Below, piece after piece: positions 7,748 to 42,947 of a stretch of DNA of 46,493 nucleotides. Position 1 is the stretch's first letter, and the number at the start of each line of letters is the position of its first letter. Position numbers and translations under genes: made by a program. The notes beneath the pieces are model-generated. The model was not told the DNA's origin, searched no databases, and was given only the letters and a program-made list of their open reading frames with translations. The stretch comes from Candidatus Woesearchaeota archaeon (GTDB lineage: Archaea; Nanobdellota; Nanobdellia; Pacearchaeales; GW2011-AR1), in the NCBI GenBank assembly GCA_964424875.1, contig CAYRKK010000001.1:1-46493 (forward strand), in the 5' to 3' direction.

Positions 7748-7901
7748 TTTATTCCTCTTCTCTTTATATTAACAAAAATCCCTTATATAAAAACATTTCT
7801 AAACTTTACTTTCATTAACTATACATATCTTTCTAACTCAACTCTATCATACAAGTTTTTTTAAATTGATAATATTTCTAATAAAAATAATAAAACTCAA
7901 A

Positions 7902-8210
7902 ATGGAATATAAACCTCAAAACATCACCCAACAACTAGCAGATTATATAAAAAATAATTTAAAAAAAGGATATACTATTGATTCTCTTAAATTCTCTTTA
8001 TTTAATCAAAGATATTCAAAAATATCTATTGATAATGCAATAGAACTTATGAATAAACAACTTGCAGAAGAAATTCCAAAAATCAAAGAAAAACCTCAGA
8101 TAACTTATAGAATAATAGTTAATGATTTAGATTCAGAAAATAATGCCCCTTCCGAAATAATAGTATCAAATCAAAAAAAAAGTTTTTGGAAAAAATTGTT
8201 AGGGTTTTGA
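7902..8210 (+). CDS. Hypothetical small protein
   Basis: Intact ORF starting MEYKPQNITQQLADYIK. No domain recognised. ATG at 7902 is preferred over the TTG at 7866. Confidence 0.45.
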   Translation: MEYKPQNITQQLADYIKNNLKKGYTIDSLKFSLFNQRYSKISIDNAIELMNKQLAEEIPKIKEKPQITYRIIVNDLDSENNAPSEIIVSNQKKSFWKKLLGF

Positions 8211-8227
8211 AATTGATAAAGGTGTTA

Positions 8228-8308
8228 CGCCGTCGCCCGGAATCGAACCGGGAAGCCCGTAAAGGCACTGGTCTCAAGCCAGTTGGAGTACCATTGTCCC
8301 ACGACGGC
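8228..8308 (-). tRNA. tRNA-Ser (anticodon UGA)
   Basis: Hand-folded cloverleaf. Acceptor stem GCCGTCG/CGACGGC; anticodon stem ACTGG/CCAGT with loop CTTGAGA. A 14-nt long variable arm; T arm CCCGG-TTCGATT-CCGGG; discriminator G. CCA is not encoded. Confidence 0.9.
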
Positions 8309-8332
8309 ATAATAAAAGTATAAGAATGTAGC

Positions 8333-8340
8333 TTTTAAAT
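8333..8340 (-). promoter_or_regulatory. Putative TATA box for tRNA-Ser
   Basis: ATTTAAAA on the minus strand, 25-32 nt upstream of the tRNA 5' end. Confidence 0.35.
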
Positions 8341-8438
8341 GTTTTTGTGTTGATTAATCCTCACAATTACCAACCCAGAATTATTAAAGCCCAACTACAG
8401 CTAAGCCCATCTCTGTTTAGTTTAAAATTAAAAACAAA

Positions 8439-8735
8439 TTAACCAAACAGAGCACTCAAACCTTCTGCTGCAGCTTCTTTCTTTTCTTCTTTAGGAGCTT
8501 CTTCTGCTTTTGCTTCACCATCTCCACCAGCTACACCACTAGAAACAGCTACGCCAGCAACAACAGCATTTTCAAGCTCTTTGTCTATATCTACATCTTT
8601 CAAGCTTACAACAAGGCTTTTCACTTTGCTTTCATCTATTTCCACACCAGTTGCCTGAAGAACTTTTTTAATACTTTCTTCATCAACAGGTTTTCCTAAC
8701 TTGTGCAACAGCAAAGCTGCATATACATATTCCAT
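8439..8735 (-). CDS. rpl12: Ribosomal stalk protein P1 (archaeal L12)
   Basis: MEYVYAALLLH start, an Ala/Gly/Glu hinge and the conserved C-terminal EGLSALFG. Confidence 0.9.
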   Translation of the reverse strand: MEYVYAALLLHKLGKPVDEESIKKVLQATGVEIDESKVKSLVVSLKDVDIDKELENAVVAGVAVSSGVAGGDGEAKAEEAPKEEKKEAAAEGLSALFG

Positions 8736-8736
8736 T

Positions 8737-9315
8737 TTAAGGTCTTTCCTCCTGTTTATTTAATTGAATTTGAAATTCATCTTCTTCATCTAAGAATATC
8801 TCTTCTCCACCTAAAGTTAAAATATTCTCATAATCTCCTCTTAAATCTTCCAATTCCTTAAGCGCTAAATTTTCAATTCTATTATTTCCTATTAAATATG
8901 CTTTAACAGTCATTCTATAAAGTTCTTCATTTAATTCTTTTGCTTCTTGAAAATCCCATCCTCCAACTGCTTCTCCAAACTCTTCTTTAAGTTGTTGATA
9001 AGATTCTCTAAAACTTCTTGGTTTTATTTCCTCTGATTGATTTAGTTGAGCATTTTTTAATTCCCTTAATATTTTTGCTTGTTCACCTAAATACTTTAAT
9101 TCTTCTCCAACTAATTCTTTTTCTTCTGAATCTTTTAAATCAAAATATAATTCTAAAAGTTTATCAATATATGGCCCATTTGTTCTTAATGCCTTTTCAA
9201 CATCAACAATAGTTTCCCCTATTTCTTGATAATGATTCTCTCTAACTTCAGGCAATCCCTTTATAAAATCTTCAGGCAATCTAGCTATTAATCTTTCTAA
9301 TAATTGTTTATTCAT
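8737..9315 (-). CDS. Uncharacterised Glu-rich helical protein inserted between P0 and P1
   Basis: 192-codon ORF in AT-rich DNA. Its ATG overlaps the P0 stop (ATGAATAA), and its TAA lies 1 nt before the P1 ATG. Confidence 0.6.
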   Translation of the reverse strand: MNKQLLERLIARLPEDFIKGLPEVRENHYQEIGETIVDVEKALRTNGPYIDKLLELYFDLKDSEEKELVGEELKYLGEQAKILRELKNAQLNQSEEIKPRSFRESYQQLKEEFGEAVGGWDFQEAKELNEELYRMTVKAYLIGNNRIENLALKELEDLRGDYENILTLGGEEIFLDEEDEFQIQLNKQEERP

Positions 9316-10180
9316 CTTTCTCTGCCTCCTTATTTTCTTCTTTAACTTCAACAGGTTTTTCTTCATCACTCCCTTTTTCTTTCTCCTCAACTTTTCCATC
9401 CTCTTTAATTTCTTCACTCTTCTCTAAATTTCTTAATGCTTCACCTTCTAAATTCGCCTTACTTAATAAATATCCAATTGTATCTTTACAATAATAAACA
9501 ATCTTTTGAGAAAATCCAAGTGCCTTAGAACTAGCAATCTTCAATTTTTCTACAACACTTCCTGTATCAACATTAATCTCTGCATAGATTTTCTCATCTT
9601 TAATATCATAAATAACTAAGGGTTTCAATCCAATATTAAATGGTTGAATATTCAATTTTTGTAACAAAGAAGCAACATTACTATTAATCCCCTGCCCTTT
9701 ATTTACAACAACTTTTGAAACTTTAATTGAAATTTTTCCTTCTTCAACAGCAATCTTGATTCCTAAAGAACCTAATTCACTAATAGCAGGCCCTGGGACT
9801 AAATCAGTCGGTCCAGCTTTAATCTCAATATCATCAGTAGCTATTTGTCCTGCTTTTGCAAAAACAGGAGTTTTTTTCTTAGATAAAATTCCTGCTAATT
9901 CAAAACCTTCTATATCTGAAATTACAAATGCATAATCAGATTTAATATATTTCTCCAAACTCAAAACAGAATCTTTTTCTAATTTTTTAATTACCCTTAA
10001 CATAATATTTTTCTTTGCTATTTTAATTAAAGCAAGTTTCCTGACTGATTTTTTAATTTCATTAAATTGTTTTGAAGGTAAACTCTTGATTGAAACTATC
10101 ATTAAAGTTCTAGCATTTTTTATTTTCTCAGCTAATTCTTGAACTTGCTTTTGTTTTAAATTAATTGAGTCTGATACCAT
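9308..10180 (-). CDS. rpl10: Ribosomal protein uL10 (P0)
   Basis: The N-terminal L10 domain and its position between L1 and P1. The C-terminus is a Lys/Glu-rich tail ending KEAEKDE. Confidence 0.9.
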   Translation of the reverse strand: MVSDSINLKQKQVQELAEKIKNARTLMIVSIKSLPSKQFNEIKKSVRKLALIKIAKKNIMLRVIKKLEKDSVLSLEKYIKSDYAFVISDIEGFELAGILSKKKTPVFAKAGQIATDDIEIKAGPTDLVPGPAISELGSLGIKIAVEEGKISIKVSKVVVNKGQGINSNVASLLQKLNIQPFNIGLKPLVIYDIKDEKIYAEINVDTGSVVEKLKIASSKALGFSQKIVYYCKDTIGYLLSKANLEGEALRNLEKSEEIKEDGKVEEKEKGSDEEKPVEVKEENKEAEKDE

Positions 10181-10189
10181 TTTATCTTC

Positions 10190-10831
10190 TTATAAATCCA
10201 CTTTCACAACTTCACCCATTGTAAATTTAATTTTAATATTTCTAATATTATCTTTTTTTCTTGGAAGAGTTTCTAAAATTTTATTATAAACAACTAAAGC
10301 ATTTTCTACAACAGCTTCATCAATTAAGGATTCTTTTCCAACTCCAATTTTAATACTTGGTTCCTTAACCATAATTCTTACACTCAAATTAATTTTTTTA
10401 ATAAGTTCTTGAATTATTTTTTCATCTTCATTAGGTAAAACACCTAATTGAGGAGAAGGCATCTTGCCAGCAGGACCTAAAATTCTACCAAATGAAGTAG
10501 CAATAGCAGGCATTAATTTTGCATTTGCAATAAAAGAATCATATTTCTTAACTAATTTTTTAATATCTTTTTTTTCTTTATATTTTCCAAAATCATCTTT
10601 TTTAATTACATCAATTAACTTTGAATCTTTTTCAAAAAATCCTGCAACTTTCTTATCTTTAATCTTGTTTGGAAGCTCAACAAATAAATTAAAAGCTTCT
10701 TTTCTAACATCAAAATCTTTTAGATTTATAATTAAGTCCACTGTTTGATCAAATTTCCTTTCCTTCCTTTCCTTATTTTCAATCTCTCTAAGTTTTTTCA
10801 CAGCTTTGAGAAATTTTTCTTCTTCTGCCAT
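10190..10831 (-). CDS. rpl1: Ribosomal protein uL1
   Basis: Typical L1 length and sequence (FDQTVDLIINLK, GRILGPAGKMPSP), directly upstream of P0. Confidence 0.9.
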   Translation of the reverse strand: MAEEEKFLKAVKKLREIENKERKERKFDQTVDLIINLKDFDVRKEAFNLFVELPNKIKDKKVAGFFEKDSKLIDVIKKDDFGKYKEKKDIKKLVKKYDSFIANAKLMPAIATSFGRILGPAGKMPSPQLGVLPNEDEKIIQELIKKINLSVRIMVKEPSIKIGVGKESLIDEAVVENALVVYNKILETLPRKKDNIRNIKIKFTMGEVVKVDL

Positions 10832-10917
10832 TTTATTTCATAATCTCCTTAACTTACTACCTATGCACTTAAACTTCAAGAATTTTGAAGCTAAATGATG
10901 TAGTCAATAGTTAAATA

Positions 10918-10943
10918 GGGGATGGGGATGGGGTTTTTAAGGG
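10918..10943 (+). other. G-quadruplex-forming motif GGGGATGGGGATGGGGTTTTTAAGGG
   Basis: Four G-runs of at least 3 with loops of at most 7 nt, in the divergent intergenic region between rpl1 and the cytidylyltransferase-like gene. Confidence 0.5.
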
Positions 10944-11021
10944 TTTTGGTTTTTGATTTTTGAAAACAAAAATCTTCCTAACCCCAACAAAATTTAAATA
11001 TAATAAAATCCATATAAATAC

Positions 11022-11522
11022 ATGATAATTGATTTAACAAAAACAAATAACAGAGAAGAGGTTGAAAAATATCTTGCTGAATTAAAAACACAAAAAAAAG
11101 TAGTGACAGTTAGTGGTTATTTTGATCCCTTGCATCACGGACATATTGAACTTTTTAAACTTTCAAGAGCCTTGGGAAATCATTTAGTTGTTATTATTAA
11201 TAGTGATAAACAAACAACTATGAAAAAAGGTTTTGTATTTATGCCTCATGATGAAAAAGCAAAAATAATTGTAGAATTAGGATGTGTTGATGATGTTTTT
11301 ATAAGTATTGATGAAGACAGAAGCCAATGCAAAACATTGGAATTTATTAAACCTCATATTTTTGCAAATGGTGGTGATAGATTTACTTATGAAGTACCTG
11401 AAACACCTATTTGCAGACAACATGGAATACAAATAATTGATGGAGTAGGATCAAAAATACAAAGCTCTTCAAAATTAATAGAGCAATCAAAACAATTTCT
11501 TGAAGATAAAAATAATAAGTGA
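11022..11522 (+). CDS. Cytidylyltransferase-like nucleotidyltransferase (RibL/TagD/RfaE-domain-II-like)
   Basis: HxGH motif in SGYFDPLHHGHIELF and a Rossmann-like size of about 165 aa. Confidence 0.7.
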   Translation: MIIDLTKTNNREEVEKYLAELKTQKKVVTVSGYFDPLHHGHIELFKLSRALGNHLVVIINSDKQTTMKKGFVFMPHDEKAKIIVELGCVDDVFISIDEDRSQCKTLEFIKPHIFANGGDRFTYEVPETPICRQHGIQIIDGVGSKIQSSSKLIEQSKQFLEDKNNK

Positions 11523-11778: not shown

Positions 11779-12758
11779 ATGAAAGTTGCAATTAATGGTT
11801 TAGGAAGAATTGGAAGAACTGTTTTAAAATTGGTTTGGAAAAAGGAGTGAATATTGTTGCTGTAAATGATTTAACAGATTCCAAAACATTGGCTTATTTG
11901 ATAAAATATGATTCTGTTTATGGTGTTTATGATAAAAAAATTAAAATTAAAAACGATTTTATTGAAATTAATAATAAAAAAATAAAAATCTTAAAACAAG
12001 AAAATCCTGAAAATCTGCCTTGGAAAGATTTAGGGGTTGATGTGGTTGTTGAATCAACAGGAATTTTTAAAGATAGAGAAGGTGCTGAAAAACATTTAAA
12101 AGCTGGAGCAAAAAAAGTTTTAATATCTGCTCCTGCAAAAAATCCTGATATTACAATAGTCCCTGGTGTTAATGACAATAAATTAAAAAAAGAGCATAAA
12201 ATAATTTCTCTTGCAAGTTGCACAACAAATTGTTTAGCACCTGTTATTAAAGTTCTTAATGATAGTTTTGGTGTTAAAAAAGGTTTTATGACAACTGTTC
12301 ATGCTTATACTGGTGGGCAGAATATTATTGATAGTCCTCAAAAAAAATTAAGAAGAGGAAGAGCAGGAGCTATTAACATAGTTCCAACTACTTCAGGAGC
12401 TACAACAGCTGTTGCCGAAGTTATACCTTCTTTAAAAGGGAAATTAGATGGATTAGCTCTCAGAGTTCCTGTTGCTTGTGGAAGTATTGTTGATTTTGTT
12501 GCCGAATTAAAAAAAAGTGTTACTAAAGAACAGATTAACAAAGCATTTGAAAAAGCTGCAAATAAAAAAATGAAAGAAATTTTAAAATATACCGAAGAAG
12601 AATTAGTAAGTTCTGATATTATTGGAGACTCACACTCTTCAATTGTAGATGGATTATCAACACAAGTTAATGGAAATTTAATTAAAGTTTTAGCTTGGTA
12701 TGATAATGAATATGGTTATAGTTGCAGGATGGTTGATGTGATTAAGATGGTTGGGTGA
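11779..12758 (+). pseudogene. gap: Type I glyceraldehyde-3-phosphate dehydrogenase with a -1 frame break after codon ~17-19
   Basis: The N-terminal MKVAINGLGRIGRTVLK (the NAD-binding GxGRIG) is in one frame and stops at TGA 11848-11850. The rest (EKGVNIVAVNDL ... SCTTNC ... WYDNE) is in the -1 frame from 11835. SD GAGGTGA precedes the ATG at 11779. Confidence 0.85.
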
Positions 12759-12820
12759 GTTATTCAGTTAAATTTAAAATATCTTTATTCTTATATAATA
12801 AATAAAAAGAGGTTAAGATA

Positions 12821-13744
12821 ATGTATGATATAATAATTATTGGTGCTGGACCAGCAGGAATAACTGCTGCAATATATGCAGCTAGAAGAAAGCTAAACTT
12901 CTTAGTTTTAAGTTTAGATATTGGAGGGCAAATGTCTTGGAGTTCTGATGTTGATAATTATCCTGGTCTGCCTGATTTACCAGGAGTAGATGTTGTTGAA
13001 AAATTCCAAAAACATATGAAAGATTATAATATTAAAGTAAAGCAAGAAGAAGTTATTAATGTTCAGAAAAAACTCAGGACTTTTGTTGTTAAAACAAAAA
13101 AATTCAGCTATGAAGCTAAAACAGTTTTAATTGCTTCTGGAAAAAAACCAAAAAAACTAAATGTTCCTGGAGAAGAAGAATTTTTAGGTAAAGGAGTAAA
13201 TTACTGTGCAACTTGTGATGCTCCTCTTCAAAAAAATAAAATACTTGCAGTTATTGGAGGGGGAAATTCAGCTTTAGATGCAGCTAATTTTTTAAGCAAA
13301 TATGCAAAAAAGATTTATCTTCTTGATGTAAACTCAAAATTAGGAGGAGAGCCTGTTTTAAGAGACAAGGTTTTAAAAAACAAGAAAATTACACATATAC
13401 CTGGTGTTAAAGTTCTAGAAATTATTGGAGAAAAGTTTGTTAATAGTCTGAAGTACATTCAAAATAATCAAAACAAAATTTTAAAACTAGAAGGAGTTTT
13501 TATTGAGGTCGGATTAGTTTCTAAAGCTGATTTTATTAAATTAGTTAAAAAAAATAAATGGGGAGAAATAATGATTTTCAGAAGTACCAAATCACATGAA
13601 GAAAATCTCACAAGTGTTCCAGGAATTTTTGCAGCAGGGGATATTACAGATATTCCTGCAAAACAAATAGCTGCCGCAGTTGGAGAAGGTTGTAAAGCAG
13701 CTTTAGCTATTTTTGATTATTTAAATAAATATAAACTTTCTTAG
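12821..13744 (+). CDS. trxB: Thioredoxin reductase
   Basis: FAD motif IIIIGAGPAGITAA, redox-active CATC, second dinucleotide motif VIGGGNSALD, and GDITD. Confidence 0.85.
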   Translation: MYDIIIIGAGPAGITAAIYAARRKLNFLVLSLDIGGQMSWSSDVDNYPGLPDLPGVDVVEKFQKHMKDYNIKVKQEEVINVQKKLRTFVVKTKKFSYEAKTVLIASGKKPKKLNVPGEEEFLGKGVNYCATCDAPLQKNKILAVIGGGNSALDAANFLSKYAKKIYLLDVNSKLGGEPVLRDKVLKNKKITHIPGVKVLEIIGEKFVNSLKYIQNNQNKILKLEGVFIEVGLVSKADFIKLVKKNKWGEIMIFRSTKSHEENLTSVPGIFAAGDITDIPAKQIAAAVGEGCKAALAIFDYLNKYKLS

Positions 13745-13777
13745 AAAGACAAGTTTAATCAAAGAAAAAAGAAAAAA

Positions 13778-14908
13778 ATGAAAACTCTAAATGATTTTAA
13801 TTTTAAAGAAAAAACAGTTTTACTTAGAGCAGATTTAAATTCTGATGTTGTTGGAAAAAAAGTTTTAATAAGCGAAAGAATAAAAGCAAGTGTAGAAACA
13901 ATAAAAGAATTAAAAAAGAAAAAAGCTAAAATTGTTGTAATTGCTCATCAAGGAAATCCTGGAAAATCTAATTTTCTTTCTTTAAAACAACATTCTAAAC
14001 TTTTAAACAAATATACAAAAATTAAATTTGTAAAAGATATTATTGGTAAAAAAGCAGAAAAAGCAATAAAGAGTCTGAAACCAGGACAAGCTTTGCTTTT
14101 GGAAAATATTAGATTTATTAATGATGAGTTTCATCCTGAAAAAGCTCAGAAAAATAAACTAACAACCACATTATCAAAATTATGTGATGTTTATATTAAT
14201 GATGCTTTTTCTGTTTGCCATAGAAAACATACTTCTATTGTTTCATTTCCAAAATACATGAAAAGTTGTGCTGGCAGATTATTAGAAAAAGAAGTCAAAG
14301 CATTAAAAAAAATTAAAATTAAAAACTGTCTTTATATTCTTGGAGGAGCAAAACCTAAAGAAAACATAAGATTATTAAAAGGAAAAAATAAAATTCTTGC
14401 ATGTGGATTATTTGGCCAACTCTGCATTATAACAAAAGGGAAAAATCTTGGGTTTCAAAATAAATATTTAAAAGATGACTTGCCTTTAGTAAATAAACTA
14501 AAAAAGAAATTAAAAAATGTGCAAACTCCTGTTGATTTTGCTATTAAAATCAATAATAAAAGAGTTGAACTAGCTTTAGAAAAATTTCCAAGCAAATATG
14601 AAATTTATGATATCGGCAAAAAGACACAGGAAAAATATATAAAAGTAATAAGAAAAGCAAAAGCAATTTACATGAAAGGCCCTGCTGGATATTGTGCTGA
14701 TAAAAAGTTTTGCAAAGGTACAAACAAGATATTAAAAGCAATTGCAAAAAATAAAGGTTTTAGTGTTATTGGTGGAGGGCATTTAAGTGATGCTATTGAA
14801 AAATCAAAAATAAATAAAAAAAAGTTTAATCATATCAGCCTAAGTGGAGGAGCATTATTAAGATATATTGCAGGAGAAAAACTTCCTGGTTTAGAGGTGT
14901 TAAACTAA
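13778..14908 (+). CDS. pgk: Phosphoglycerate kinase (archaeal type)
   Basis: LLRADLNS, VIAHQGNPG and LLENIRF motifs, with glycolytic gene context. Confidence 0.85.
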   Translation: MKTLNDFNFKEKTVLLRADLNSDVVGKKVLISERIKASVETIKELKKKKAKIVVIAHQGNPGKSNFLSLKQHSKLLNKYTKIKFVKDIIGKKAEKAIKSLKPGQALLLENIRFINDEFHPEKAQKNKLTTTLSKLCDVYINDAFSVCHRKHTSIVSFPKYMKSCAGRLLEKEVKALKKIKIKNCLYILGGAKPKENIRLLKGKNKILACGLFGQLCIITKGKNLGFQNKYLKDDLPLVNKLKKKLKNVQTPVDFAIKINNKRVELALEKFPSKYEIYDIGKKTQEKYIKVIRKAKAIYMKGPAGYCADKKFCKGTNKILKAIAKNKGFSVIGGGHLSDAIEKSKINKKKFNHISLSGGALLRYIAGEKLPGLEVLN

Positions 14909-14979
14909 AACCCTGACAATAAATTAAAACCTTAACAATAAACTAAAATCCTAACAATAAACTAAATTCTGACAAATTA
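14904..14979. repeat. Four tandem 19-bp repeats (consensus ACTAAAAYCYTRACAATAA)
   Basis: Units at 14904-14922, 14923-14941, 14942-14960 and 14961-14979, the last degenerate. They begin within the pgk stop region and sit upstream of the pfkB-family gene. Confidence 0.8.
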
Positions 14980-15029
14980 GAAAAGCTTTTTAATAAGGAT
15001 TGTTTTATTTAATAATAAAAGAGGTAAAA

Positions 15030-15962
15030 ATGTTTGATATAATAACTTTTGGAAGCGGAGTAGTTGATGTTATAGTTGATACTGATTTGAATGAAAAAGG
15101 AAAGTTTATGTGTTATGAAGTTGGAAGCAAAATTCTTTTAAAAAATTTAAGATTTGATATTGGTGGAGGTGGAACTAATACTGCTGTGGCATTTTCAAGA
15201 TTAGGATTAAAAACAGGATGGATTGGAAATATCGGAAAGGATAATAATGGAAAAGAAATATTAAAAACCATTAAAACAGAAAAAATAAAATTCCTTGGTA
15301 AAATTAAAAAAAATGCTGTAAGCGGTTATTCAATAATCCTTGATAGCAAACAGAATAATAGAACTATTTTAACTTATAAGGGAATTAATGACCAGCTTTC
15401 TTTTAATGAAATTGAATTAAGAAAAATTAAAACTAACTGGTTATATTTTACATCTGCTTTAGAAAAAAGTTTTGAAACTCAGAAAAAGATTGCTAGACTT
15501 TTTAAAAAGAAAGGGGTAAAATTAGCATATAATCCAAGTGAGTATTTGATTAAGAGAAAAGATTTATCTGGTTTGTTAAAATTAACAGATATTTTAATAT
15601 TAAATAAACAAGAAGCAGAATTATTATTAAAAAAGAACAAGATTAAGGAAAAAGATTTGTTAAAAGGATTAAGTTATTTAGGACCAAAAATTATTGTAAT
15701 CACTGATAAAAATAAGTTGATTTCATGTTATGATAATCAGGAAGGGAAAAATAAAAAATATTATCTAAAACCAAATAAAATTAAAGTTGTTGAAAGAACA
15801 GGTGCAGGAGATGCTTTTGCTTCTGGATTTGTTGCTGGATTAATTGTTGATTGGAGCATTGAAAAATGTTTGAGACTAGGTTTAAAAGAAAGTGAAGCAG
15901 TTATAAAACATTTTGGAGCTAAAAATGAATTATTAAGGATGAGGTTGAAAAAAAATGTCTAG
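15030..15962 (+). CDS. PfkB/ribokinase-family sugar kinase
   Basis: GGGGTN motif and C-terminal TGAGDAFASGF. SD GAGGT at 15021-15025 precedes the ATG at 15030. Confidence 0.75.
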   Translation: MFDIITFGSGVVDVIVDTDLNEKGKFMCYEVGSKILLKNLRFDIGGGGTNTAVAFSRLGLKTGWIGNIGKDNNGKEILKTIKTEKIKFLGKIKKNAVSGYSIILDSKQNNRTILTYKGINDQLSFNEIELRKIKTNWLYFTSALEKSFETQKKIARLFKKKGVKLAYNPSEYLIKRKDLSGLLKLTDILILNKQEAELLLKKNKIKEKDLLKGLSYLGPKIIVITDKNKLISCYDNQEGKNKKYYLKPNKIKVVERTGAGDAFASGFVAGLIVDWSIEKCLRLGLKESEAVIKHFGAKNELLRMRLKKNV

Positions 15963-16056
15963 AAAGATTATTAATGTTTTACAAAGAATCGGAATTGCAA
16001 TAGGAATAATTGCAATTATAATATTAACAATAATAAATATGGGTAATTGGATATGA
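15955..16056 (+). CDS. Micro-ORF, 33 aa, single-pass membrane peptide
   Basis: MSRKIINVLQRIGIAIGIIAIIILTIINMGNWI. Its ATG overlaps the kinase stop, and its stop overlaps the next ATG (ATGA). Confidence 0.35.
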   Translation: MSRKIINVLQRIGIAIGIIAIIILTIINMGNWI

Positions 16057-16229
16057 AAAACTCACAAATCTTAAATATAATTGCAGCTATGATAGGTATA
16101 TCTCTTATGCTTTATTGGATTACTAGAACAAGTGGAACTGATTGTTTTACTTGGTTTGATTATACAGCAAGTTTTAGTTCATTATTTATTAATCTGGGTA
16201 TAAATATATTTGCTGCAGTAGGTAATTAA
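16053..16229 (+). CDS. Small membrane protein, 58 aa
   Basis: MKNSQILNIIAAMIGISLMLYW..., with two hydrophobic segments. It is chained to the flanking micro-ORFs. Confidence 0.45.
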   Translation: MKNSQILNIIAAMIGISLMLYWITRTSGTDCFTWFDYTASFSSLFINLGINIFAAVGN

Positions 16230-16230
16230 A

Positions 16231-16362
16231 ATGAATAAAGAAAAAACAAAAAAAGATGAATTAACTATTTTTGAAATAATTTTATTAACACTGGGTTCTT
16301 TGTTTTTATTAGGAGGTTTAGGTTTTTTGATTTATGCTTTAAAATTAAGATTTTTTGGATAA
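16231..16362 (+). CDS. Micro-ORF, 43 aa, single-pass membrane peptide
   Basis: MNKEKTKKDELTIFEIILLTLGSLFLLGGLGFLIYALKLRFFG. It starts 1 nt after the previous stop and ends 1 nt before the fba ATG. Confidence 0.35.
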   Translation: MNKEKTKKDELTIFEIILLTLGSLFLLGGLGFLIYALKLRFFG

Positions 16363-16363
16363 A

Positions 16364-17119
16364 ATGGTAAATTTAAACAAACTACTTAAAAAAGGAAAAG
16401 CATTGTTTTTAGCTTATGACCAAGGTTTAGAACATGGGCCAAGCGATTTTAATGATAAAAATGTTAATCCTCTGTATATTTTAGATATTGCAAAAAAAGG
16501 CAAATATAATGGAATTATATTTCAAAAAGGAATTGCGGAAAAATATAATAAGGAAATTAAAAAAAGCAAAGTTTCTTTGATTATAAAATTAAATGGAAAA
16601 ACTAATTTAGTTAAAGGAGAACCAATTTCTCGTCAACTCTGCACTGTTGATGAAGCAATTAAATTAGGGGCCATTGCTGTAGGTTATACTATTTATATTG
16701 GAAGCAAATATGAAAGTATTATGATGCAAGAGTTTGAAAAAATACAAAGAGAGGCACATTCAAAAGCATTGCCTGTAATTGCATGGATATATCCTAGAGG
16801 AAAAAGCATTAAAGGAAAATCAAAAAAAGAATTAATAGCTTATGCTTGTCGTTCTGGTTTAGAACTTGGTGCTGATATTATTAAAATTAATTATAATGGA
16901 AAAACTAATGATTTAAAATGGGCTGTTAAATCTGCTGGTAAAACAAAAGTAGTTATTGCAGGTGGTGTTAAAAAAAATGAAAAAGAATTAATTAAACAAG
17001 TTAAAGATATTATGGATACAGGTTGTATTGGATTAGCAATTGGAAGAAATATATGGCAGTCAAAAAACCCTTTAGAAATTACTAAAAAAATTAAAAACAT
17101 GATTTGGAAAAACCAATAA
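16364..17119 (+). CDS. fba: Archaeal class I fructose-bisphosphate aldolase (DhnA family)
   Basis: LAYDQGLEHGP and the IIKINY region with the Schiff-base lysine context. Adjacent to tpiA. Confidence 0.8.
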   Translation: MVNLNKLLKKGKALFLAYDQGLEHGPSDFNDKNVNPLYILDIAKKGKYNGIIFQKGIAEKYNKEIKKSKVSLIIKLNGKTNLVKGEPISRQLCTVDEAIKLGAIAVGYTIYIGSKYESIMMQEFEKIQREAHSKALPVIAWIYPRGKSIKGKSKKELIAYACRSGLELGADIIKINYNGKTNDLKWAVKSAGKTKVVIAGGVKKNEKELIKQVKDIMDTGCIGLAIGRNIWQSKNPLEITKKIKNMIWKNQ

Positions 17120-17122
17120 AAA

Positions 17123-17752
17123 ATGAAACCAATAATAATTATAAATTTTAAAACTTATAAACAAGGCAAGAAAGTAGTTGATTTAGCAAAAAAAATTGAA
17201 AAAGTAAGTAAAGATATTATCATAGGGGTTCAGGCAAATGATATTTATGAAGTTGCTAAAGCAACTAAACTAAAAGTATTTTCAGAACATGTTGATTATT
17301 TTAAACCAGGAAAATATACTGGTTATATTATTCCTGAAGCTATTAAAAAAGACAAGGCTGTTGGAAGTTTTTTAAATCATTCTGAACATAAATTAAAATT
17401 TGATGTTTTAGTGAAGAGTATTAAAAGATGCAAAGAAGTAAAATTAAAAACTGCTGTATTTGCAAAAGATTTAAAACAAGCAAAAAAAATTGAAAAACTT
17501 AAACCAGATTTTTTAATTTATGAACCTCCAGAATTAGTTGGAGGAAAAGTTTCAGTAAGCAATGCAAAACCTGGAGTGATTAGCAAGATAAAGAAAAATC
17601 TTAAATGTAAATTTCTTGTTGGTGCTGGAATTAAAAATAATGAAGATGTTAAAACAGCTATAAAGTTAGGTGCAAGTGGAATTGCTGTTTCAAGTGGGGT
17701 TGTGAATGCAAGGGATCCTGAGGGGAAGTTAAGGGGGTTGTTGGAGAGGTAG
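17123..17752 (+). CDS. tpiA: Triosephosphate isomerase (short archaeal form)
   Basis: INFKTY, LNHSEH and YEPPELVG motifs, in about 209 aa. Confidence 0.85.
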   Translation: MKPIIIINFKTYKQGKKVVDLAKKIEKVSKDIIIGVQANDIYEVAKATKLKVFSEHVDYFKPGKYTGYIIPEAIKKDKAVGSFLNHSEHKLKFDVLVKSIKRCKEVKLKTAVFAKDLKQAKKIEKLKPDFLIYEPPELVGGKVSVSNAKPGVISKIKKNLKCKFLVGAGIKNNEDVKTAIKLGASGIAVSSGVVNARDPEGKLRGLLER

Positions 17753-35501: not shown

Positions 35502-35717
35502 ATGAGAGATGATAAATTAATCCTCCCTTTTGAAGAACTTAAAGACTTACAGAGGGGTCAAGAAAGAACCTTTGATTTCAAGGAACATCAAGAGCTTCCT
35601 AGAAACGCTGTTTTAATTGATAGAACTGGCGGAGAATATTACAGTGCTGAAAGACTCTCAATTCAATCTTTGGGAGATTCATTAATAGCAATTTACAGAA
35701 TAGTTGAAGTTTATTAA
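35502..35717 (+). CDS. Orphan 71-aa protein, Arg-rich relative to neighbours
   Basis: Intact ORF whose stop overlaps the convergent taw1 stop by 4 nt. Hand count 7 Arg against 3 Lys. Confidence 0.4.
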   Translation: MRDDKLILPFEELKDLQRGQERTFDFKEHQELPRNAVLIDRTGGEYYSAERLSIQSLGDSLIAIYRIVEVY

Positions 35718-36676
35718 ATATTTTTTATCTTCATCTTCTTTTTATCTTTCCCAATCAAAACAACTTTAGAAAATTTATGCTCATCTAAAATCTTATATCC
35801 TTCACCTAATTCATTGACAATTTTCTTAGCATATTCTTTTACTTCTTCATGACTCGGCATCATTTCATAACCTAATCTTTGACGAGAAAAACCAACACTA
35901 ACAAACCCCTTCACCTCAATAAAATCAGGACAAGCTTTTTTTATCAACTTAACATAATCTTTAACTTGTTCTGATTTCATATTTAAATCTTTAACTAATG
36001 TCATTCGAATAACTGTTCGAGTCTTGTCTTTCAATCCTTTTATAATTTCTAAACTTTTATTAAATTTTTTCCAAGCATTTTTAACAGAGCTTTTATGCCA
36101 CTTATCAAATAATTTTTCATTAGGAGAATTTAAACTAATATAAAGCTGAGTTGGCAACTGTTTATTTTTAGATAATTTTTTCAAAACTTCAGGACATAAT
36201 CCATTACTAACAACAAAACTTGTCTTCCTTTTTTTTCTTAATTCAGAAATCAACTCTCCTATCTTAGGATATAAGGTAGGCTCACCAATTAATGAAATAG
36301 CAAACTGCATTGGTTCTTGAGCTTGTTTTAATTTTTTAAAATTAACTTTTGAATTTCCTTTAAAACCAGTTAATAATTTTCTCTGTTGTTTAATACAATT
36401 GTCAATAATTTCAGAAGGAGAATCAACCTTTTTACTATCCACAACTTTAGAAAAATCAATTTCAATAGGTCTCCAACAATGCAAACATTTATTTTGACAT
36501 CCAAGCCATGGAGACATTTGACAACATAGATGACTTTTAATTCCATAAAACTTTTCTTTATAACAAATCCCTTTATCAACTAAAGATTTCTGTGTCCATC
36601 TACATATTTTAACAACACTATTTTTTCCAACAAATCTATGCCCTTGTTTCTCTAAAACTTTTTTTATGTTTTTCAT
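35714..36676 (-). CDS. taw1: tRNA 4-demethylwyosine synthase (radical SAM, Taw1/TYW1)
   Basis: CYKEKFYGIKSHLCCQMSP and CQNKCLHCWRP cluster motifs characteristic of Taw1. Confidence 0.85.
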   Translation of the reverse strand: MKNIKKVLEKQGHRFVGKNSVVKICRWTQKSLVDKGICYKEKFYGIKSHLCCQMSPWLGCQNKCLHCWRPIEIDFSKVVDSKKVDSPSEIIDNCIKQQRKLLTGFKGNSKVNFKKLKQAQEPMQFAISLIGEPTLYPKIGELISELRKKRKTSFVVSNGLCPEVLKKLSKNKQLPTQLYISLNSPNEKLFDKWHKSSVKNAWKKFNKSLEIIKGLKDKTRTVIRMTLVKDLNMKSEQVKDYVKLIKKACPDFIEVKGFVSVGFSRQRLGYEMMPSHEEVKEYAKKIVNELGEGYKILDEHKFSKVVLIGKDKKKMKIKNI

Positions 36677-36727
36677 GAAGATAGAGAAGAAATCTATTTT
36701 AAAAACCTATTCAAAAAATCATTTTAA

Positions 36728-37069
36728 TCATAAAAATCCCTCTTCTCCTAAATTTCTTAAGACACTCTTAATTTCATCAATAACCTTTTGTTGTGTTTTC
36801 TTATCAGACATCATGACAAATTTTATTAAAAGATCTTTTAATTCTTCAGATTTCAAAAGTTTTATTTTAAATCCATCAACAATAAAATAAAATCGATAAG
36901 ATTTATATCTTAATTCTTTAATTAAAATCCTCCCAACACAACTAACTGGTTTTCCTTTTTTAGGAGAATCCTTAAGAGAGTACATTAATTTAATAATTTT
37001 AATAGATTCTTTTTTGAATTTTTTATTAATTTCTTCTTCTAATTTTTTTGTTATTATCACCCTTGCCAT
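36728..37069 (-). CDS. RelE/ParE-like type II toxin
   Basis: KELRYKSYRFYFIVDG resembles the RelE core. It overlaps the upstream antitoxin-like ORF by 13 nt. Confidence 0.5.
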   Translation of the reverse strand: MARVIITKKLEEEINKKFKKESIKIIKLMYSLKDSPKKGKPVSCVGRILIKELRYKSYRFYFIVDGFKIKLLKSEELKDLLIKFVMMSDKKTQQKVIDEIKSVLRNLGEEGFL

Positions 37070-37263
37070 CTTTTTTTAGCATTTGACAGGGCTTCATCTA
37101 TTTTAATGCAATCTTCTTCACTCATTAATAAATCTTGCAATTGTCTCTCTTTTGCACTTTCAAGTAAACGCAAAATTATTTCTGTATAAGTTTCTCCTTT
37201 ATTCCCAAATTCTTGAATATCCTCCTTTAAAGGTTTTGGTATAGCAATAGTTGTAGTTTCCAT
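37057..37263 (-). CDS. Ribbon-helix-helix-like antitoxin
   Basis: TTIAIPKPLKEDIQEF...YTEIILRLLE pattern, at the first position of a two-gene overlapping module. Confidence 0.55.
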   Translation of the reverse strand: METTTIAIPKPLKEDIQEFGNKGETYTEIILRLLESAKERQLQDLLMSEEDCIKIDEALSNAKKRWQG

Positions 37264-37491
37264 TTTTATAACAGTTATAATAATTATAATAATTATAGTT
37301 TATAAAGATTTTGGTGGTTTTGAATTGGAATGCCCCTGTCGAGATAAGGTGGGCATGGAAATGATTGTTAAAAAAATATTCATACTAGGAGTAAATAATC
37401 AAATGATTGTTTATTTTCTTCTAAAATTAAGATATTGTGTGTAATTTCTTTTTTGTACTATCTAAATAAATTATAGCGAATAAATTCCCGA

Positions 37492-38346
37492 TTAGGTTTT
37501 TGCTCTAATAGAAACTAGAACCTGTCCATAATCTCCTTGTTTCCTATCATAACTTGAAAGATATTCTTCTGGAAAAATATCAACATTAAAACTCCTTCCT
37601 TTCTCATCTGCAAGTTGTAATATACGGGGGCTCCATTTTCTAAATTCTTGTAATCCATTAACAAGTCCTTTCTTGCCATTAAAAACCTTTGAATAGGCTG
37701 TTCCTTCATCATAAATCAAATCACCTTCTTCTAAAAATAATAATTGCGTATTATCTCCTATTAATGAAGTAATTGCCGGATGTGGAATATTTCCTCCTAT
37801 CTTAAGATTAGCATACTCTCTTTTTTCATGATGAACTCCAATTGATAGAAAATGAGCTCCTGCAATCAAACTTGGAAATCCTTTTTCATCAATCAAGGTA
37901 TTGACATTAGGAATTTTCATATCTACTCCTGAAGATTCTGGATGTTTTAATCTTCCTTCAAATCTCATTTGTTTTGCTATTAATATGTTTTCTAAATTGG
38001 CTTCATCAATAACTTTGCATAAGTTTCTATAATAACTAAATTCTCCTTCAACAACAATAATAGGTAAATCCATATGGGGTAAAGCAAGTCTTGAAAATTC
38101 TTCATAAAGAGATAGTGGATGGCACCTTTCAAATTCTTTTTCAAAATCACCTGATGTTCCACAACCTGGAAATGGATTTTTATTTTGAGTTTGTAGATAT
38201 CTAAATGCAATTTCTTTAATTCTTTTATGATTAGAACTTACAGCACTATCTAAATCCGTACCTCCATCAATTGTTTTCTTACAAAGGGCTGAAAATATTT
38301 CTATAGGTCCTACTGGACCAGGCCCTAAAAATAATGAATAATTCAT
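37492..38346 (-). CDS. Orphan 284-aa protein of unknown function
   Basis: Long intact ORF with atypical composition (Gly/Pro/His/Arg-richer), flanked by unusually long intergenic regions of 228 and 295 bp. Confidence 0.6.
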   Translation of the reverse strand: MNYSLFLGPGPVGPIEIFSALCKKTIDGGTDLDSAVSSNHKRIKEIAFRYLQTQNKNPFPGCGTSGDFEKEFERCHPLSLYEEFSRLALPHMDLPIIVVEGEFSYYRNLCKVIDEANLENILIAKQMRFEGRLKHPESSGVDMKIPNVNTLIDEKGFPSLIAGAHFLSIGVHHEKREYANLKIGGNIPHPAITSLIGDNTQLLFLEEGDLIYDEGTAYSKVFNGKKGLVNGLQEFRKWSPRILQLADEKGRSFNVDIFPEEYLSSYDRKQGDYGQVLVSIRAKT

Positions 38347-38641
38347 ATTGAATTATAAAAATAACCCCCATTTTATTTTTATTATCCTTTGACTTCCTAA
38401 TCTTATTTCTTCTTGTTTCTTCAAATCCATTTTATTATTTTATCACAGAACTCTTTTTCCCTTTAGGATTAACTATCTACTCTAACATATACTTTTAAGT
38501 CTTTCTATAGGGCAAACAATCAGATGTTTATTTAGTAAATTTACTGCATAAATACTCCTAGTTTTTTAGAGGGTAGATTATTTTCTTAAGCTGTATAGAT
38601 TATCTAAAATATCTTAATTGTCTAAATGCTCCTGCTGAGCA

Positions 38642-40186
38642 TCAAAACATCGCACTAAACCAACCTAACATCAAAACCAACAAAGCACCTAAAATTAAAT
38701 AAGTAGCTAACTTAAACATAATTTGAGCAAACTTCTCACTACCTGTAATGGCCCAAATACTTAACATAAACATTCTTCCTCCATCAAAAATAGCAACAGG
38801 CCACATATTAATTAAAGCAACACTTAAATTAATTAAAGCCAGCCACCAAATTAAATTATAAATAAAAACAATTAAATCAATATTAAATCTTGGTTCATAA
38901 AAAGTAGCAGGTTTTTTGAAAAAATTAAACATATCTGCAACTGTTCCTAAAACTTTTTGATTTGTGTTCATAAACCCAATTCCAATAACAGCCTTTTTTT
39001 TAACCTCAATATTCTCATTTCCACTTTTTAAACTATAGAACTCTCCTTCTAATCCTTCATACTGATTTGAATCCTCAGCTAATATAATTTCATACTCTAA
39101 TCTTTCTCCTTTCCCTTTAACATCTTTTGTAATAATCTTAACTTTATCACCAACATCATAATCTTTTAATATTAATGCTAAATCATCATGATCTGTAATC
39201 TTAATACCATTAATCTCAATAATAGCTCCCCTTAAACCAGCATTAATAGCAGGCAAATCTTCATACAATGCAACTTTTTCTAAATCTTCTTCTAAACTTT
39301 TTTCTAATTGAACCTTAAAATTTTCAATAGAAATATAATATGTTTTTCCATCTGCAACAATCTTAGTTAATTCCAAGGTATTCCCATTACCTCCTAAAAT
39401 TAAATCATCACTAAGATTGTTCTCTTTAATTATATTTAATAAACCTTGAGCAGAAGCATCATTTACAACTTTTCCACCAACCATATTAATAGAGTTAATA
39501 TTAACTATCCCAGGAGTATAAGTATTAAATATTGCACCAGCAGGAATATATGTTAAAACAAAAAATACAGATAATAATAAAAAAAACAAAATAGCTAATA
39601 TAAGATTAGTAAAAACACCTGCAGATAAAATAGCAATTTGTTGATATTTTGATTTTTTCTCCATTTGTTTTTCATCAGGTTCAACAAATGCAGCTAAAAA
39701 AGGACCTAAAAAACCAAAACCAGTTGTTAAAATTTTAACATTATATAGACGAGCAATTATTCCATGAGCAAATTCATGAAAAATAGCAATAACTGCAATT
39801 GCAATAATCCAATAAGTAAAATAAAAAGGAGGTAAAAAATCAATTTTAAAAGCTTCAGGTAAATAAGGGATTAAGGGCATTAATGGAGGAATTTTAATTG
39901 CTTTAACAATTTCCGGAACAAAAAGATAAATATAAACTAATTTATATAAAAAATACATCATACTTGCCATAAGCAAATATCCACAAACAACTCCAATAAA
40001 ACCTAAAACAGAGAGGGTCTTTTTATATTTTTCTCCAACATAATTAATAAATTTTACACCAACCTGAGTTCTATAAAGATACATAATTCCTTCTCTTTTT
40101 AAATTCTTTTTTCGTTTCCACAAAAAAATCCCAACACCTAAACTAAATATTATTAAAAAAGTTATATCATATATGTAAAAGCTCAT
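38642..40186 (-). CDS. Site-2 protease family (M50) membrane metalloprotease with a PDZ-like insert
   Basis: The HExxH in FHEFAHGII lies within a transmembrane segment. Multiple TM helices and a central soluble domain. Confidence 0.8.
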   Translation of the reverse strand: MSFYIYDITFLIIFSLGVGIFLWKRKKNLKREGIMYLYRTQVGVKFINYVGEKYKKTLSVLGFIGVVCGYLLMASMMYFLYKLVYIYLFVPEIVKAIKIPPLMPLIPYLPEAFKIDFLPPFYFTYWIIAIAVIAIFHEFAHGIIARLYNVKILTTGFGFLGPFLAAFVEPDEKQMEKKSKYQQIAILSAGVFTNLILAILFFLLLSVFFVLTYIPAGAIFNTYTPGIVNINSINMVGGKVVNDASAQGLLNIIKENNLSDDLILGGNGNTLELTKIVADGKTYYISIENFKVQLEKSLEEDLEKVALYEDLPAINAGLRGAIIEINGIKITDHDDLALILKDYDVGDKVKIITKDVKGKGERLEYEIILAEDSNQYEGLEGEFYSLKSGNENIEVKKKAVIGIGFMNTNQKVLGTVADMFNFFKKPATFYEPRFNIDLIVFIYNLIWWLALINLSVALINMWPVAIFDGGRMFMLSIWAITGSEKFAQIMFKLATYLILGALLVLMLGWFSAMF

Positions 40187-40292
40187 TTTAATCTCCTCTT
40201 GTTTTTATTACTAGATAATCTTGATTTATAAATATAAGTATTTTAATTTAATATCTTAAATCCTATTCATTATTAATTACATAAAAATACTC

Positions 40293-40457
40293 TTACTTCT
40301 TCCTCACAGGTCTAAACGCCCTCTTCAAACATTTTCTACATCTAATCTTACCTTCAATAATTTTACGAGGATCTGCCCTAATTTTAGACTTGCAATTCTT
40401 GCAGACAAACATGTTTTTATACAATCTTGCTTGCGTTACTGGTAATTTTGTTGCCAT
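40293..40457 (-). CDS. rpl40e: Ribosomal protein eL40 (L40e)
   Basis: 54-aa ORF absent from the ORF track: MATKLPVTQARLYKNMFVCKNCKSKIRADPRKIIEGKIRCRKCLKRAFRPVRKK, with a CxxC...CxxC zinc ribbon. Confidence 0.8.
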   Translation of the reverse strand: MATKLPVTQARLYKNMFVCKNCKSKIRADPRKIIEGKIRCRKCLKRAFRPVRKK

Positions 40458-40481
40458 TTTAAAATATATAAAAAACCTTTT

Positions 40482-40871
40482 TTAAATCTTCCTCTTAATT
40501 ATTTTAGCTCCTTCAACATCCCAATACTCTACTTGATCTCCTTCTTTTAAATCTTCTTTTAATTCTTCAGGAATAACTATCTCTAATGTTTCAAAACTTT
40601 CTAAATCCATAACACTTGCTTTATCACTTGAAATGGATAATAATTGTGCTTTATTTTTATTAATCAAAGGAACATCTAATCTATCATGCCCACTCATTGC
40701 AAAAACCTTTTTTTTACCATCAATAATCCCAATAGCTTCAATCCTGCATTTAGCATGCCCATGCTTTCCTGTTTTTGAAATATCATTAGAACGAACAATA
40801 CAAGCCACATCATCAACAATAATTGCACTTCCTTGTCTAGCCTCTGTTGCATTAATTAATTTAAATGCCAT
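40482..40871 (-). CDS. eif5a: Translation initiation factor 5A
   Basis: Hypusine-loop motif SKTGKHGHAKCR and an OB-fold C-terminal domain. Confidence 0.9.
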   Translation of the reverse strand: MAFKLINATEARQGSAIIVDDVACIVRSNDISKTGKHGHAKCRIEAIGIIDGKKKVFAMSGHDRLDVPLINKNKAQLLSISSDKASVMDLESFETLEIVIPEELKEDLKEGDQVEYWDVEGAKIIKRKI

Positions 40872-40927
40872 GTTTAATAAATTAAAAATGTGTTTATAAA
40901 ACTTTGGTAAATTTATCCAATAGAAAA

Positions 40928-41561: not shown

Positions 41562-41653
41562 CTTAAAACAAATTTTAAATCCTATAAAAAGATTATTATT
41601 CCCAATTATAAATATTCCAATAATCTTTTAAACCCTTATTTCAGTCTTTAATC

Positions 41654-42454: not shown

Positions 42455-42485
42455 TTATTTTAAACTCTTAATTATTCTAAAAAAT

Positions 42486-42845: not shown

Positions 42846-42947
42846 TCATAAAAAAGAAGGGACTTCAAAACAACTCTAAATCATAATCTTCCAAAGTACA
42901 TATTAAGATTTAACAATCTTTAAATATCAATCCCCTTTCTTTTTCAA

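Follow-up and report, generated by a model that had tools for sequence, protein, structure and literature searches.

The genes for ribosomal proteins L1, P0 and P1 form one of the most conserved gene strings in archaea, and their products make up the stalk that recruits GTPases to the ribosome. Archaeal ribosomal-protein operons also house genes for products that are not ribosomal proteins, among them SUI1, the RNase P protein Rpp29, adenylate kinase and SecY in the S10-spc cluster. Here we describe ORF192, an open reading frame (ORF) of 192 codons between the P0 and P1 genes in a 46,493-nucleotide (nt) stretch of DNA from a Candidatus Woesearchaeota archaeon (contig CAYRKK010000001.1 of assembly GCA_964424875.1), hereafter called the window. 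Like SUI1, Rpp29, adenylate kinase and SecY, ORF192 is a same-strand, tightly packed cistron of an essential and highly expressed operon, which presumably drives its expression. Those four genes, however, are ancient, widely conserved and of known function, whereas the families represented in ORF192 belong to one clade of DPANN archaea, are present in zero to three copies, turn over between sister taxa and carry no annotation. ORF192 is therefore an unusual variant of the theme of non-ribosomal genes in ribosomal-protein operons. It is very probably a genuine protein-coding gene that combines two module families and arose by fusion. Our preferred but tentative reading is that its product is lineage-specific and dispensable and acts as a binding protein that is made along with the stalk.

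The operon lies on the minus strand of the window (28% G+C) in the order L1, P0, ORF192, P1. The L1 gene (10190..10831; Pfam Ribosomal_L1, 4.5e-29; NCBIfam PRK04203, 1.7e-42) comes first, followed by the gene for the stalk protein P0 (uL10; 9308..10180; 290 amino acids (aa); Pfam Ribosomal_L10 and RL10P_insert). The reading frame of ORF192 (8737..9315, 192 codons plus TAA) opens with an ATG (9315-9313) inside the P0 end ...AAA GAT GAA TAA, resulting in an 8-nt overlap (ATGAATAA). A Shine-Dalgarno-like AAGGAGG (9325..9331) is located 9 nt upstream of this ATG, within the coding tail of P0. At the other end, the TAA of ORF192 (8739-8737) is followed by one base (8736) and then by the ATG of P1, for which an AGGAGG is found upstream within the ORF192 tail. 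The P1 gene (8439..8735; TIGR03685 ribo_P1_arch, 3.6e-29; Pfam Ribosomal_60s) encodes 98 aa with the canonical EGLSALFG tail. Archaea use oligo-T tracts as terminators, and a T5 run directly after the P1 stop (8430..8434) is likely the end of the transcription unit; no T5 run is found inside ORF192. Given this geometry, the Shine-Dalgarno sites and the lack of an internal T5 run, ORF192, for which no separate transcription signals can be recognised, is presumably part of the L1-P0-P1 transcript. Its translation would start from the Shine-Dalgarno site in the P0 tail, and its last codons in turn carry the initiation region of P1. A preliminary description of this stretch had reported that the ATG overlaps the P0 stop and that a single nucleotide separates the TAA from the P1 ATG, and had deduced co-transcription and translational coupling; both spacings are confirmed at the positions above, and the deduction fits the geometry and the initiation sites.

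The frame itself is long for such DNA. Its stop-free run covers at least 226 codons, against a mean of 111 and a maximum of 156 codons for the longest run in 50 shuffles of the window, which bears out the earlier judgement that a 192-codon frame is unlikely to arise by chance. The G+C content of ORF192 is in line with that of its flanking genes. An identical protein was called on 17 contigs, which come from assemblies made independently at ENA, JGI and Logan, and ten fetched contigs are 100% identical in DNA over whatever portion of L1..P1 each carries; identity across independent assemblies means that the fusion is not an assembly error. The product contains 36 Glu and 10 Asp in 192 residues (isoelectric point (pI) 4.5, net charge about -20) and is predicted to be all-helical by a single-sequence model. 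As the preliminary description had also stated, no domain can be recognised: searches of Pfam, NCBIfam and the PDB sequences returned no match, the stalk-protein families Ribosomal_60s and Ribosomal_L10 included.

An exhaustive HMMER scan (phmmer) of 1.84 billion protein representatives resolved ORF192 into two parts. For residues 20-96 the scan found five proteins, 76-86 aa in length, with E values from 6.6e-9 to 2.4e-4; the best is P0002 (E 6.6e-9, 49% identity) and the others are P0003 and P0006-8. For residues 102-165 it found the 82-aa protein P0004 (E 3.2e-6, 42% identity). A 773-aa match in the same scan is a repeat-protein artefact. From these matches together with a profile search and an AlphaFold2 model we delimit an N-module at residues 18-88 (9052..9264), modelled as a three-helix bundle; phmmer, a C-profile hmmsearch and the single-sequence model delimit a C-module at residues 100-168 (8812..9018) with three predicted helices. 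Relatives of the N-module are about 80 aa long and those of the C-module about 82-92 aa. Profile searches among 5.8 billion proteins yielded 10 N clusters (family members P0002, P0003 and P0006-P0013) and 7 C clusters (P0004 and P0014-P0019), none of them annotated, and ORF192 scores 7.9e-36 against the N-profile and 1.8e-28 against the C-profile in hmmsearch. Both conserved patterns, ...AExxY...ALxxNxxYxxKLxxLY...ELxYLxEQ... for the N-module and Y(R/E)xx(I/F)x(R/A)YLxG...ALxxLxxL for the C-module core, are present in ORF192, and hydrophobic and aromatic positions are conserved across homologues that are 33-55% identical. A word-index search with ORF192 returned only ORF192 itself, and a homologue scan with alignment A4 returned no match.

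We considered whether the two halves of ORF192 are an internal duplication. The register in which N and C modules align is consistent (ALxxN..Y...Y). In hhalign, the two profiles match at E 1.5e-5 with their shared tails; once the QLNxPEE tails are trimmed the match falls to P 0.0086 with a probability of 4.7%, and a duplication is not established. Common ancestry of the two modules is possible from this comparison.

The shared tails lead to the evidence for a fusion. Closer relatives of the window (L011-L053 of the loci fetched for comparison) carry an element of about 30 nt directly 5' of the P1 ATG, whichever gene precedes it, of the form CAATTAAAT-N3-4-CCGGAGGAAA-N4-6-TAA. In the window, this conserved P1 initiation region occupies 8736..8766 (CAATTAAAT-AAAC-AGGAGGAAAG-ACC-TAA-A). 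The element translates to a tail (Q/K)LNxPEE(T/S/K)A* on P0 or on the inserted ORF: P0 proteins of insert-free loci end in it (L021, L027, L031, L034, L036, L041, L045, L048 and others), and where an insert is present the insert ends in it and the P0 tail differs, with both carrying the tail in L042. Free-standing N-modules end ...TQLNLSEETA* just before the P1 ATG. In ORF192 the junction motif occurs twice, once internally at residues 89-96 (AQLNQSEE; 9028..9051, GCTCAACTAAATCAATCAGAGGAA) and once at the very end (IQLNKQEERP; CAATTAAATAAACAGGAGGAAAG), where it closes an acidic C-terminal tail (residues 169-192, 8740..8811) that is predicted to be non-helical in a low-confidence model (predicted local distance difference test score (pLDDT) ~32-37). 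Two motifs are the scar expected if stop and start codons were lost between an N cistron and a following C cistron. The internal AQLNQSEE marks the former 3' end of a free-standing N-module cistron, and two neighbouring small cistrons of about 75-90 aa each, one N-module and one C-module, very probably fused at the P0-P1 junction to give ORF192. The N-terminal 17 residues (MNKQLLERLIARLPEDF; 9265..9315) find no counterpart in alignments with free-standing N-modules.

The resemblance of these tails among inserts and P0 is that of the P1 initiation region at the nucleotide level. We also considered whether the inserts arose when part of the 3' end of P0 or of the 5' end of P1 was duplicated in tandem. 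This was rejected, since hhalign of the N and C profiles against the P1 N-terminus and the P0 C-terminus gives P 0.07-0.53 with the tail removed. The end of ORF192, ...QLNKQEERP, is also distinct from the GLxxLFG factor-binding peptide. Within the element, 27 of 34 in-clade loci have a TTAAA[TC] at -23..-33 relative to the P1 ATG, as do 2 of 18 outgroup loci, a spacing that would suit an archaeal TATA box for a leaderless P1 mRNA, besides Shine-Dalgarno use on the polycistron.

Such a conserved 3' end raises the alternative that the ORF serves as an expression device, in which translation of a spacer bearing the P1 initiation region (TTAAAT... GGAGG) matters and the peptide is a by-product. 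The insert would then decouple translation of P1 from that of P0 and allow P1 to be made in excess, in line with the need of canonical stalks for up to six P1 per P0 (PMC7768734) and with the fact that most inserts share this 3' end despite highly diverse sequences. Insert-free relatives, however, carry the element at the end of P0, so that no insert is needed; 192 codons far exceed the requirements of a spacer; and the ratios of nonsynonymous to synonymous substitution rates (dN/dS) below 1 presented further on, as well as the hydrophobic and aromatic positions that homologues conserve, indicate that the protein itself is constrained. We consider this explanation improbable.

To place ORF192 among its relatives, we collected 54 loci by a P0-based scan with one genome per GTDB species (P0 identity 32-70%). 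All but two are metagenome-assembled genomes (MAGs) labelled Pacearchaeota, Woesearchaeota, Nanoarchaeota/Nanoarchaeia, Parvarchaeota or 'archaeon', the remaining two having bacterial labels. P0 and P1 abut (gap -1 to 3 nt) in 28 of the 50 assessable loci, sister taxa of carriers included; five loci have a gap of 12-66 nt, and 17 (counting L049) hold at least 141 nt of extra sequence at the junction. Since P0 and P1 abut in most relatives, ORF192 is an insertion relative to the ancestral state. The synteny comparison suggested in the preliminary description shows P0 and P1 adjacent in 28 of 50 relatives and module homologues at the same junction in others.

In all six contexts in which N-modules were placed (the window, L011, L015, L017, L019 and L046), they lie between P0 and P1 on the same strand and abut or overlap their neighbours. 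The arrangement is P0-[N]-P1 in L011, L015 and L046 and P0-[72 aa]-[N]-P1 in L019. In the window's nearest relative, L017, the order is L1-[38 aa]-P0-[81 aa C-like]-[80 aa N]-[78 aa]-P1, all overlapping or abutting, so the modules are separate cistrons there and their order differs from that in ORF192. C-modules form P0-[C]-P1 in L035, L037, L042, L043, L075 and L076/77, and in L049 a C-module directly follows P0 on a contig that stops before P1. An iterated local profile over the 4,930 ORFs of all fetched loci retrieved 26 ORFs, all at the P0-P1 junction except for one case between L32e and L19e. In a neighbour-joining tree of L1+P0+P1, all inserts of N or C type fall within the window's clade; among outgroup loci, inserts occur only in L054 and L063, and these are unrelated. 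The N and C families are very small, absent from all curated libraries and almost entirely specific to the P0-P1 junction of one Pacearchaeota/Woesearchaeota clade (GTDB Nanoarchaeota). Within it, sister pairs differ in their insert: L047 has none and L042 a C-module, L044 none and L019 an N-module, L029 none and L015 an N-module, and L041 none and L028 an insert of another type. This patchy distribution shows that the gene is dispensable. The modules thus occur as zero to three tightly coupled cistrons between P0 and P1 within one clade, and their presence and type vary even between sister taxa.

Other ORFs were seen at or near this junction. L051 has a 138-aa ORF between P0 and P1 (4302-4718) with a CxCGDCGD motif, unrelated to the N and C modules. 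A much larger interruption is found in the Nanoarchaeota MAG locus L054, where 1.5 kb between P0 and P1 (1720-3261) contain a 376-aa ORF followed by a 92-aa ORF. In some relatives (L027, L033, L040, L051 and L017), L1 and P0 are likewise separated, by 114-237 nt that contain short ORFs (25-76 aa), and the 38-aa ORF of L017 at this position (2373-2489) is acidic.

Patchy occupation of a fixed site is also a property of mobile elements. Free-standing homing endonuclease genes sit between conserved phage genes and spread by intronless homing, and the preliminary description had offered a selfish insertion as one option. A reading of ORF192 and its relatives as mobile mini-genes that target the junctions of ribosomal-protein operons is favoured by the differences in presence between sister genomes, by the one family member at another junction, and by the duplicated junction motif that is found on both sides of the L042 insert and within ORF192. 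With homing endonuclease genes the inserts share a patchy presence at a fixed junction of two conserved essential genes, which unrelated inserts occupy in different genomes. Unlike homing endonuclease genes, however, the modules have no nuclease, integrase or transposase domain and are far too small for one, and apart from the P1 initiation region no inverted or direct repeats flank them. No near-identical copies exist at different sites; the copies are old and diverged (20-55% identity). PHROGs and PADLOC returned no match, tblastn found none in 50,697 phage records or 72,556 plasmid records, and IMG/VR yielded none either. With no sign of recent multi-copy spread, the proposal of a selfish insertion receives no positive support, and we regard a mobile cassette as very improbable.

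Coding constraint was estimated by the Nei-Gojobori method for two pairs of C-modules of about 85 codons each. The dN/dS is 0.50 for L037 versus L076 and 0.275 for L035 versus L075, while P1 of L037 versus L076 gives 0.20. These values, obtained by a comparison that the preliminary description had recommended, lie below 1 and indicate that the C-module is under purifying selection that is relaxed relative to P1; ORF192 is a fast-evolving gene. All population copies on the ten contigs are identical, so they offer no polymorphism for a selection test. Fast evolution and dispensability in many relatives would also be expected of a non-functional relic, a decaying or spurious ORF kept open by chance or by constraints from its neighbours. 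Such a relic should not, however, have an open frame far longer than that in any shuffle, homologues retaining frames and key residues across deep divergence, dN/dS of 0.28-0.50 and a strong Shine-Dalgarno site, and we find this explanation hardly credible.

We then asked what the fold suggests about function. The N-module was modelled by AlphaFold2 with an alignment of 19 sequences, using an 83-residue construct (ORF192 residues 18-100), which gave a pLDDT of 77 and helices at positions 4-16, 22-42 and 46-78 of the construct. The single-sequence AlphaFold2 model of the whole of ORF192 has a pLDDT of 41, at which only helix positions are usable, and places helices in the C half at 102-116, 122-143 and 152-168 with low confidence. 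In a Foldseek search of the N-module model against the PDB, MIT domains were mostly top-ranked (Vps4, katanin p60, MITD1, ULK3, NRBF2 and archaeal CdvC), with template-modelling (TM) scores of 0.6-0.73 and root-mean-square deviations of 1.7-3.6 Å at non-significant E values of 0.15-0.4. MIT domains have no enzymatic activity; the grooves between their helices take up short helical peptides, such as the MIM peptides of ESCRT-III, and an activity of this kind is what we would expect of ORF192. They resemble the N-module in size (about 75 residues), in the asymmetry of the bundle and in helix lengths of about 13, 21 and 33 residues. They differ in context: MIT domains are attached to an AAA ATPase or a kinase or are associated with ESCRT/Cdv genes, whereas the ORF192 modules are stand-alone or tandem in a ribosomal-protein operon and have no ATPase domain.

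Sequence searches lend this likeness no further weight. None of the 19 module sequences matches Pfam MIT (PF04212) at E up to 10, none matches a Pfam TPR, and profile searches of the PDB sequences returned no MIT chain. The matches that they gave are weak: a designed PPR reaches E 0.005 when its repeats are summed, and a consensus TPR reaches E 0.21. A BFVD structure search gave nothing useful. No Snf7/ESCRT-III or Vps4-type domain was found in a scan that covered approximately 24 of the window's many ORFs; FtsZ is encoded. The structural comparison proposed in the preliminary description thus produced a likeness to MIT at the level of the fold and no statistical significance. Homology of the N-module to MIT is unproven and may not exist, and ORF192 is best described as two small helical modules, the N-module being modelled as MIT/TPR-like, with no demonstrable membership of a known family. 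Considering the size, the fold and the absence of catalytic motifs, the product would act by binding a protein or peptide rather than by catalysis.

The stalk proteins of this group provide a candidate partner. The canonical archaeal stalk is aP0(aP1)6 and displays the C-terminal peptide seven times, aP0 sharing the tail (PMC7768734). The C-terminal domain of aP1 binds its partners as an amphipathic helix (PMC4267659). In the window, P0 has a core to about residue 249 followed by a 40-aa acidic low-complexity tail, and it aligns with Pyrococcus horikoshii P0 (3A1Y_G) at residues 7-251 only, short of the C-terminal region. Every P0 in this DPANN group is without the C-terminal factor-binding peptide (GLxxLFG) that P1 carries (tails of L011-L074; window 9308-9430). 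Many of these P0 proteins are only 257-268 aa long; others, including that of the window, have long acidic low-complexity tails. Read from sequence, this points to a stalk that has fewer tails and may also have fewer sites for P1 to bind.

For the binding protein we tentatively favour, the preferred partner would be the P-stalk itself, bound either at P1, on its helix-forming C-terminal peptide, or at P0, on its exposed helices or its acidic tail. A helix-binding module could cap the hydrophobic spine of P0 during assembly, or bind P1 tails, and would then be an accessory factor that assembles or modulates the stalk and is made in step with P0 and P1. A functional parallel is offered by the eukaryotic ribosomal-protein chaperones Yar1, Acl4, Sqt1 and Tsr2, which are small, mostly helical or repeat-containing, often acidic and non-enzymatic, and capture their client as it is made. 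ORF192 is likewise acidic and helical and is made right after P0 and before P1, a comparison at the level of function. These chaperones, however, have no sequence relationship to ORF192 and are not encoded beside their clients, and charge shielding does not apply to P0 and P1, which are themselves acidic. We regard a stalk-binding function as somewhat doubtful.

A stronger version of this idea, which we consider unlikely, is that the P-stalk has been remodelled, with a P0 that lost the factor-binding peptide, and that the N and C modules serve it as accessory subunits or as regulators. The clade would have taken on small peptide-binding proteins of MIT-like type, produced in stoichiometric amounts between P0 and P1, that bind the P1 tail or the P0 spine and either chaperone assembly or gate the access of translation GTPases, one example being a brake on translation in an episymbiont. 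Concerning the preliminary suggestion of a lineage-specific stalk or ribosome factor, a lineage-specific coding gene in the stalk operon is upheld; the stalk role is not established, its grounds being the position of the gene and a likeness, not significant statistically, to three-helix bundles that bind peptides.

Several findings weigh against a stalk-associated binding protein. Three-helix bundles are generic, the resemblance to MIT is one of fold only, and the alignment-based model covers the N-module only. The gene is absent from about half of the clade, sister taxa of carriers included, and any stalk role is therefore non-essential. The homologue P0004 of the C-module lies between L32e and L19e (seen in four assemblies; the fetched loci are L012-14, three in all). 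Co-location at P0-P1 could simply reflect vertical descent from one ancient insertion. Finally, ORFs wedged into ribosomal-protein operons are common in these archaea. A metagenome scan seeded with L19e yielded 49 ribosomal-protein clusters from related DPANN (L078-L126), in which 86 ORFs are wedged at -4/+1 spacing between ribosomal-protein genes; they have a median length of 96 aa, lie on the same strand, are mostly singletons and take positions that differ by genome. So many unrelated wedged ORFs suggest a general process that has nothing to do with the stalk.

These data also speak for the main rival account, in which ORF192 is an operon hitch-hiker: a lineage-specific small protein unrelated to the ribosome that persists at the junction through free expression and the difficulty of a clean loss, DPANN ribosomal-protein operons being safe harbours or cradles for such genes. 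Besides the 86 genome-specific wedged ORFs, this account is favoured by at least three insert types without detected mutual similarity at P0-P1 (N, C and the unassigned ORFs in L025, L028, L039 and L052), by the patchiness among sister taxa and the one homologue at L32e-L19e, and by selection that is relaxed relative to P1. It does not predict the fidelity of the modules to their junction: all ORFs found with the N and C profiles, bar the L32e-L19e homologue, lie at one junction across a P0 divergence of about 60% identity, and modules were duplicated and fused in place, not scattered. Vertical inheritance could nevertheless account for that fidelity, and we hold the hitch-hiker account to be a serious possibility, if not a probable one.

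The N and C profiles detect none of the 86 wedged ORFs. The 192-kb JGI contig 3300072015 that carries P0004 has unannotated genes of 70-125 aa after L14, L24, L5, S8, L32e, L19e, S5 and S3. These genomes thus tend in general to keep small lineage-specific cistrons within their ribosomal-protein operons, of which the P0-P1 inserts are one case, and a literature search on DPANN and archaeal ribosomal-protein operons found no description of an L1-P0-P1 insert or of the wedged-ORF pattern. The idea that wedged ORFs are acidic chaperones for basic ribosomal proteins was discarded as a property of the class: their median pI is 7.4, close to the median of 7.7 for the other unlabelled ORFs of these loci that are 120 aa or longer (53 ORFs). 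A 60-81-aa ORF with Cys pairs (MTSKGFVWECECGN...CSGCQ) lies between L30 and L15 in eight loci (including L081, L082, L084, L090, L093, L094 and L116). From its sequence it looks like a zinc ribbon, and unlike most wedged ORFs it forms a family.

Modules that are born, duplicated, fused and lost exactly between P0 and P1 are candidate accessory stalk factors in organisms whose P0 is without the canonical tail. The P0-P1 inserts are also a clean natural example of essential operons acquiring and discarding cistrons, and the wedged-ORF pattern would bear on the annotation of small proteins, on binning and phylogenomics that rely on ribosomal-protein synteny, and on the study of how genes are born in reduced genomes. 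Should the stalk prove to be remodelled, DPANN ribosomal-protein operons would be nurseries for new ribosome-associated small proteins; should the modules be unrelated to the ribosome, the finding would reduce to a lineage-specific hypothetical gene in an unusual place.

Other features of the window were noted around the operon. A tRNA-Ser gene (8227..8309, minus strand) lies beyond the T5 run, and an Rfam scan of 7800-11300 gave no family at threshold and only sub-threshold matches, including this tRNA-Ser gene scored as tRNA-Sec. On the plus strand, a compact sugar-phosphate cluster adjoins the stalk operon (11779-17752) with genes for GAPDH, a pyridine-nucleotide disulfide oxidoreductase, PGK, a PfkB kinase, a DeoC aldolase and TIM, the labels being Pfam labels from the identical contig L001. 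An ORF at 33-932 on the minus strand has only a faint match to DDE_Tnp_1 (transposase), on an identical contig; it may be an insertion sequence remnant, about 8 kb from the operon and with no visible link to ORF192. The region 35714-44216 holds genes for a TYW1-like radical SAM protein, peptidase M50, aIF5A, FKBP and FtsZ. The 74.6-kb contig with P0019 has these genes too, upstream of L1-P0-[C-module]-P1 and no more than about 10 kb from it, whereas in the window they are 25-35 kb from the stalk operon, and the region has therefore been rearranged.

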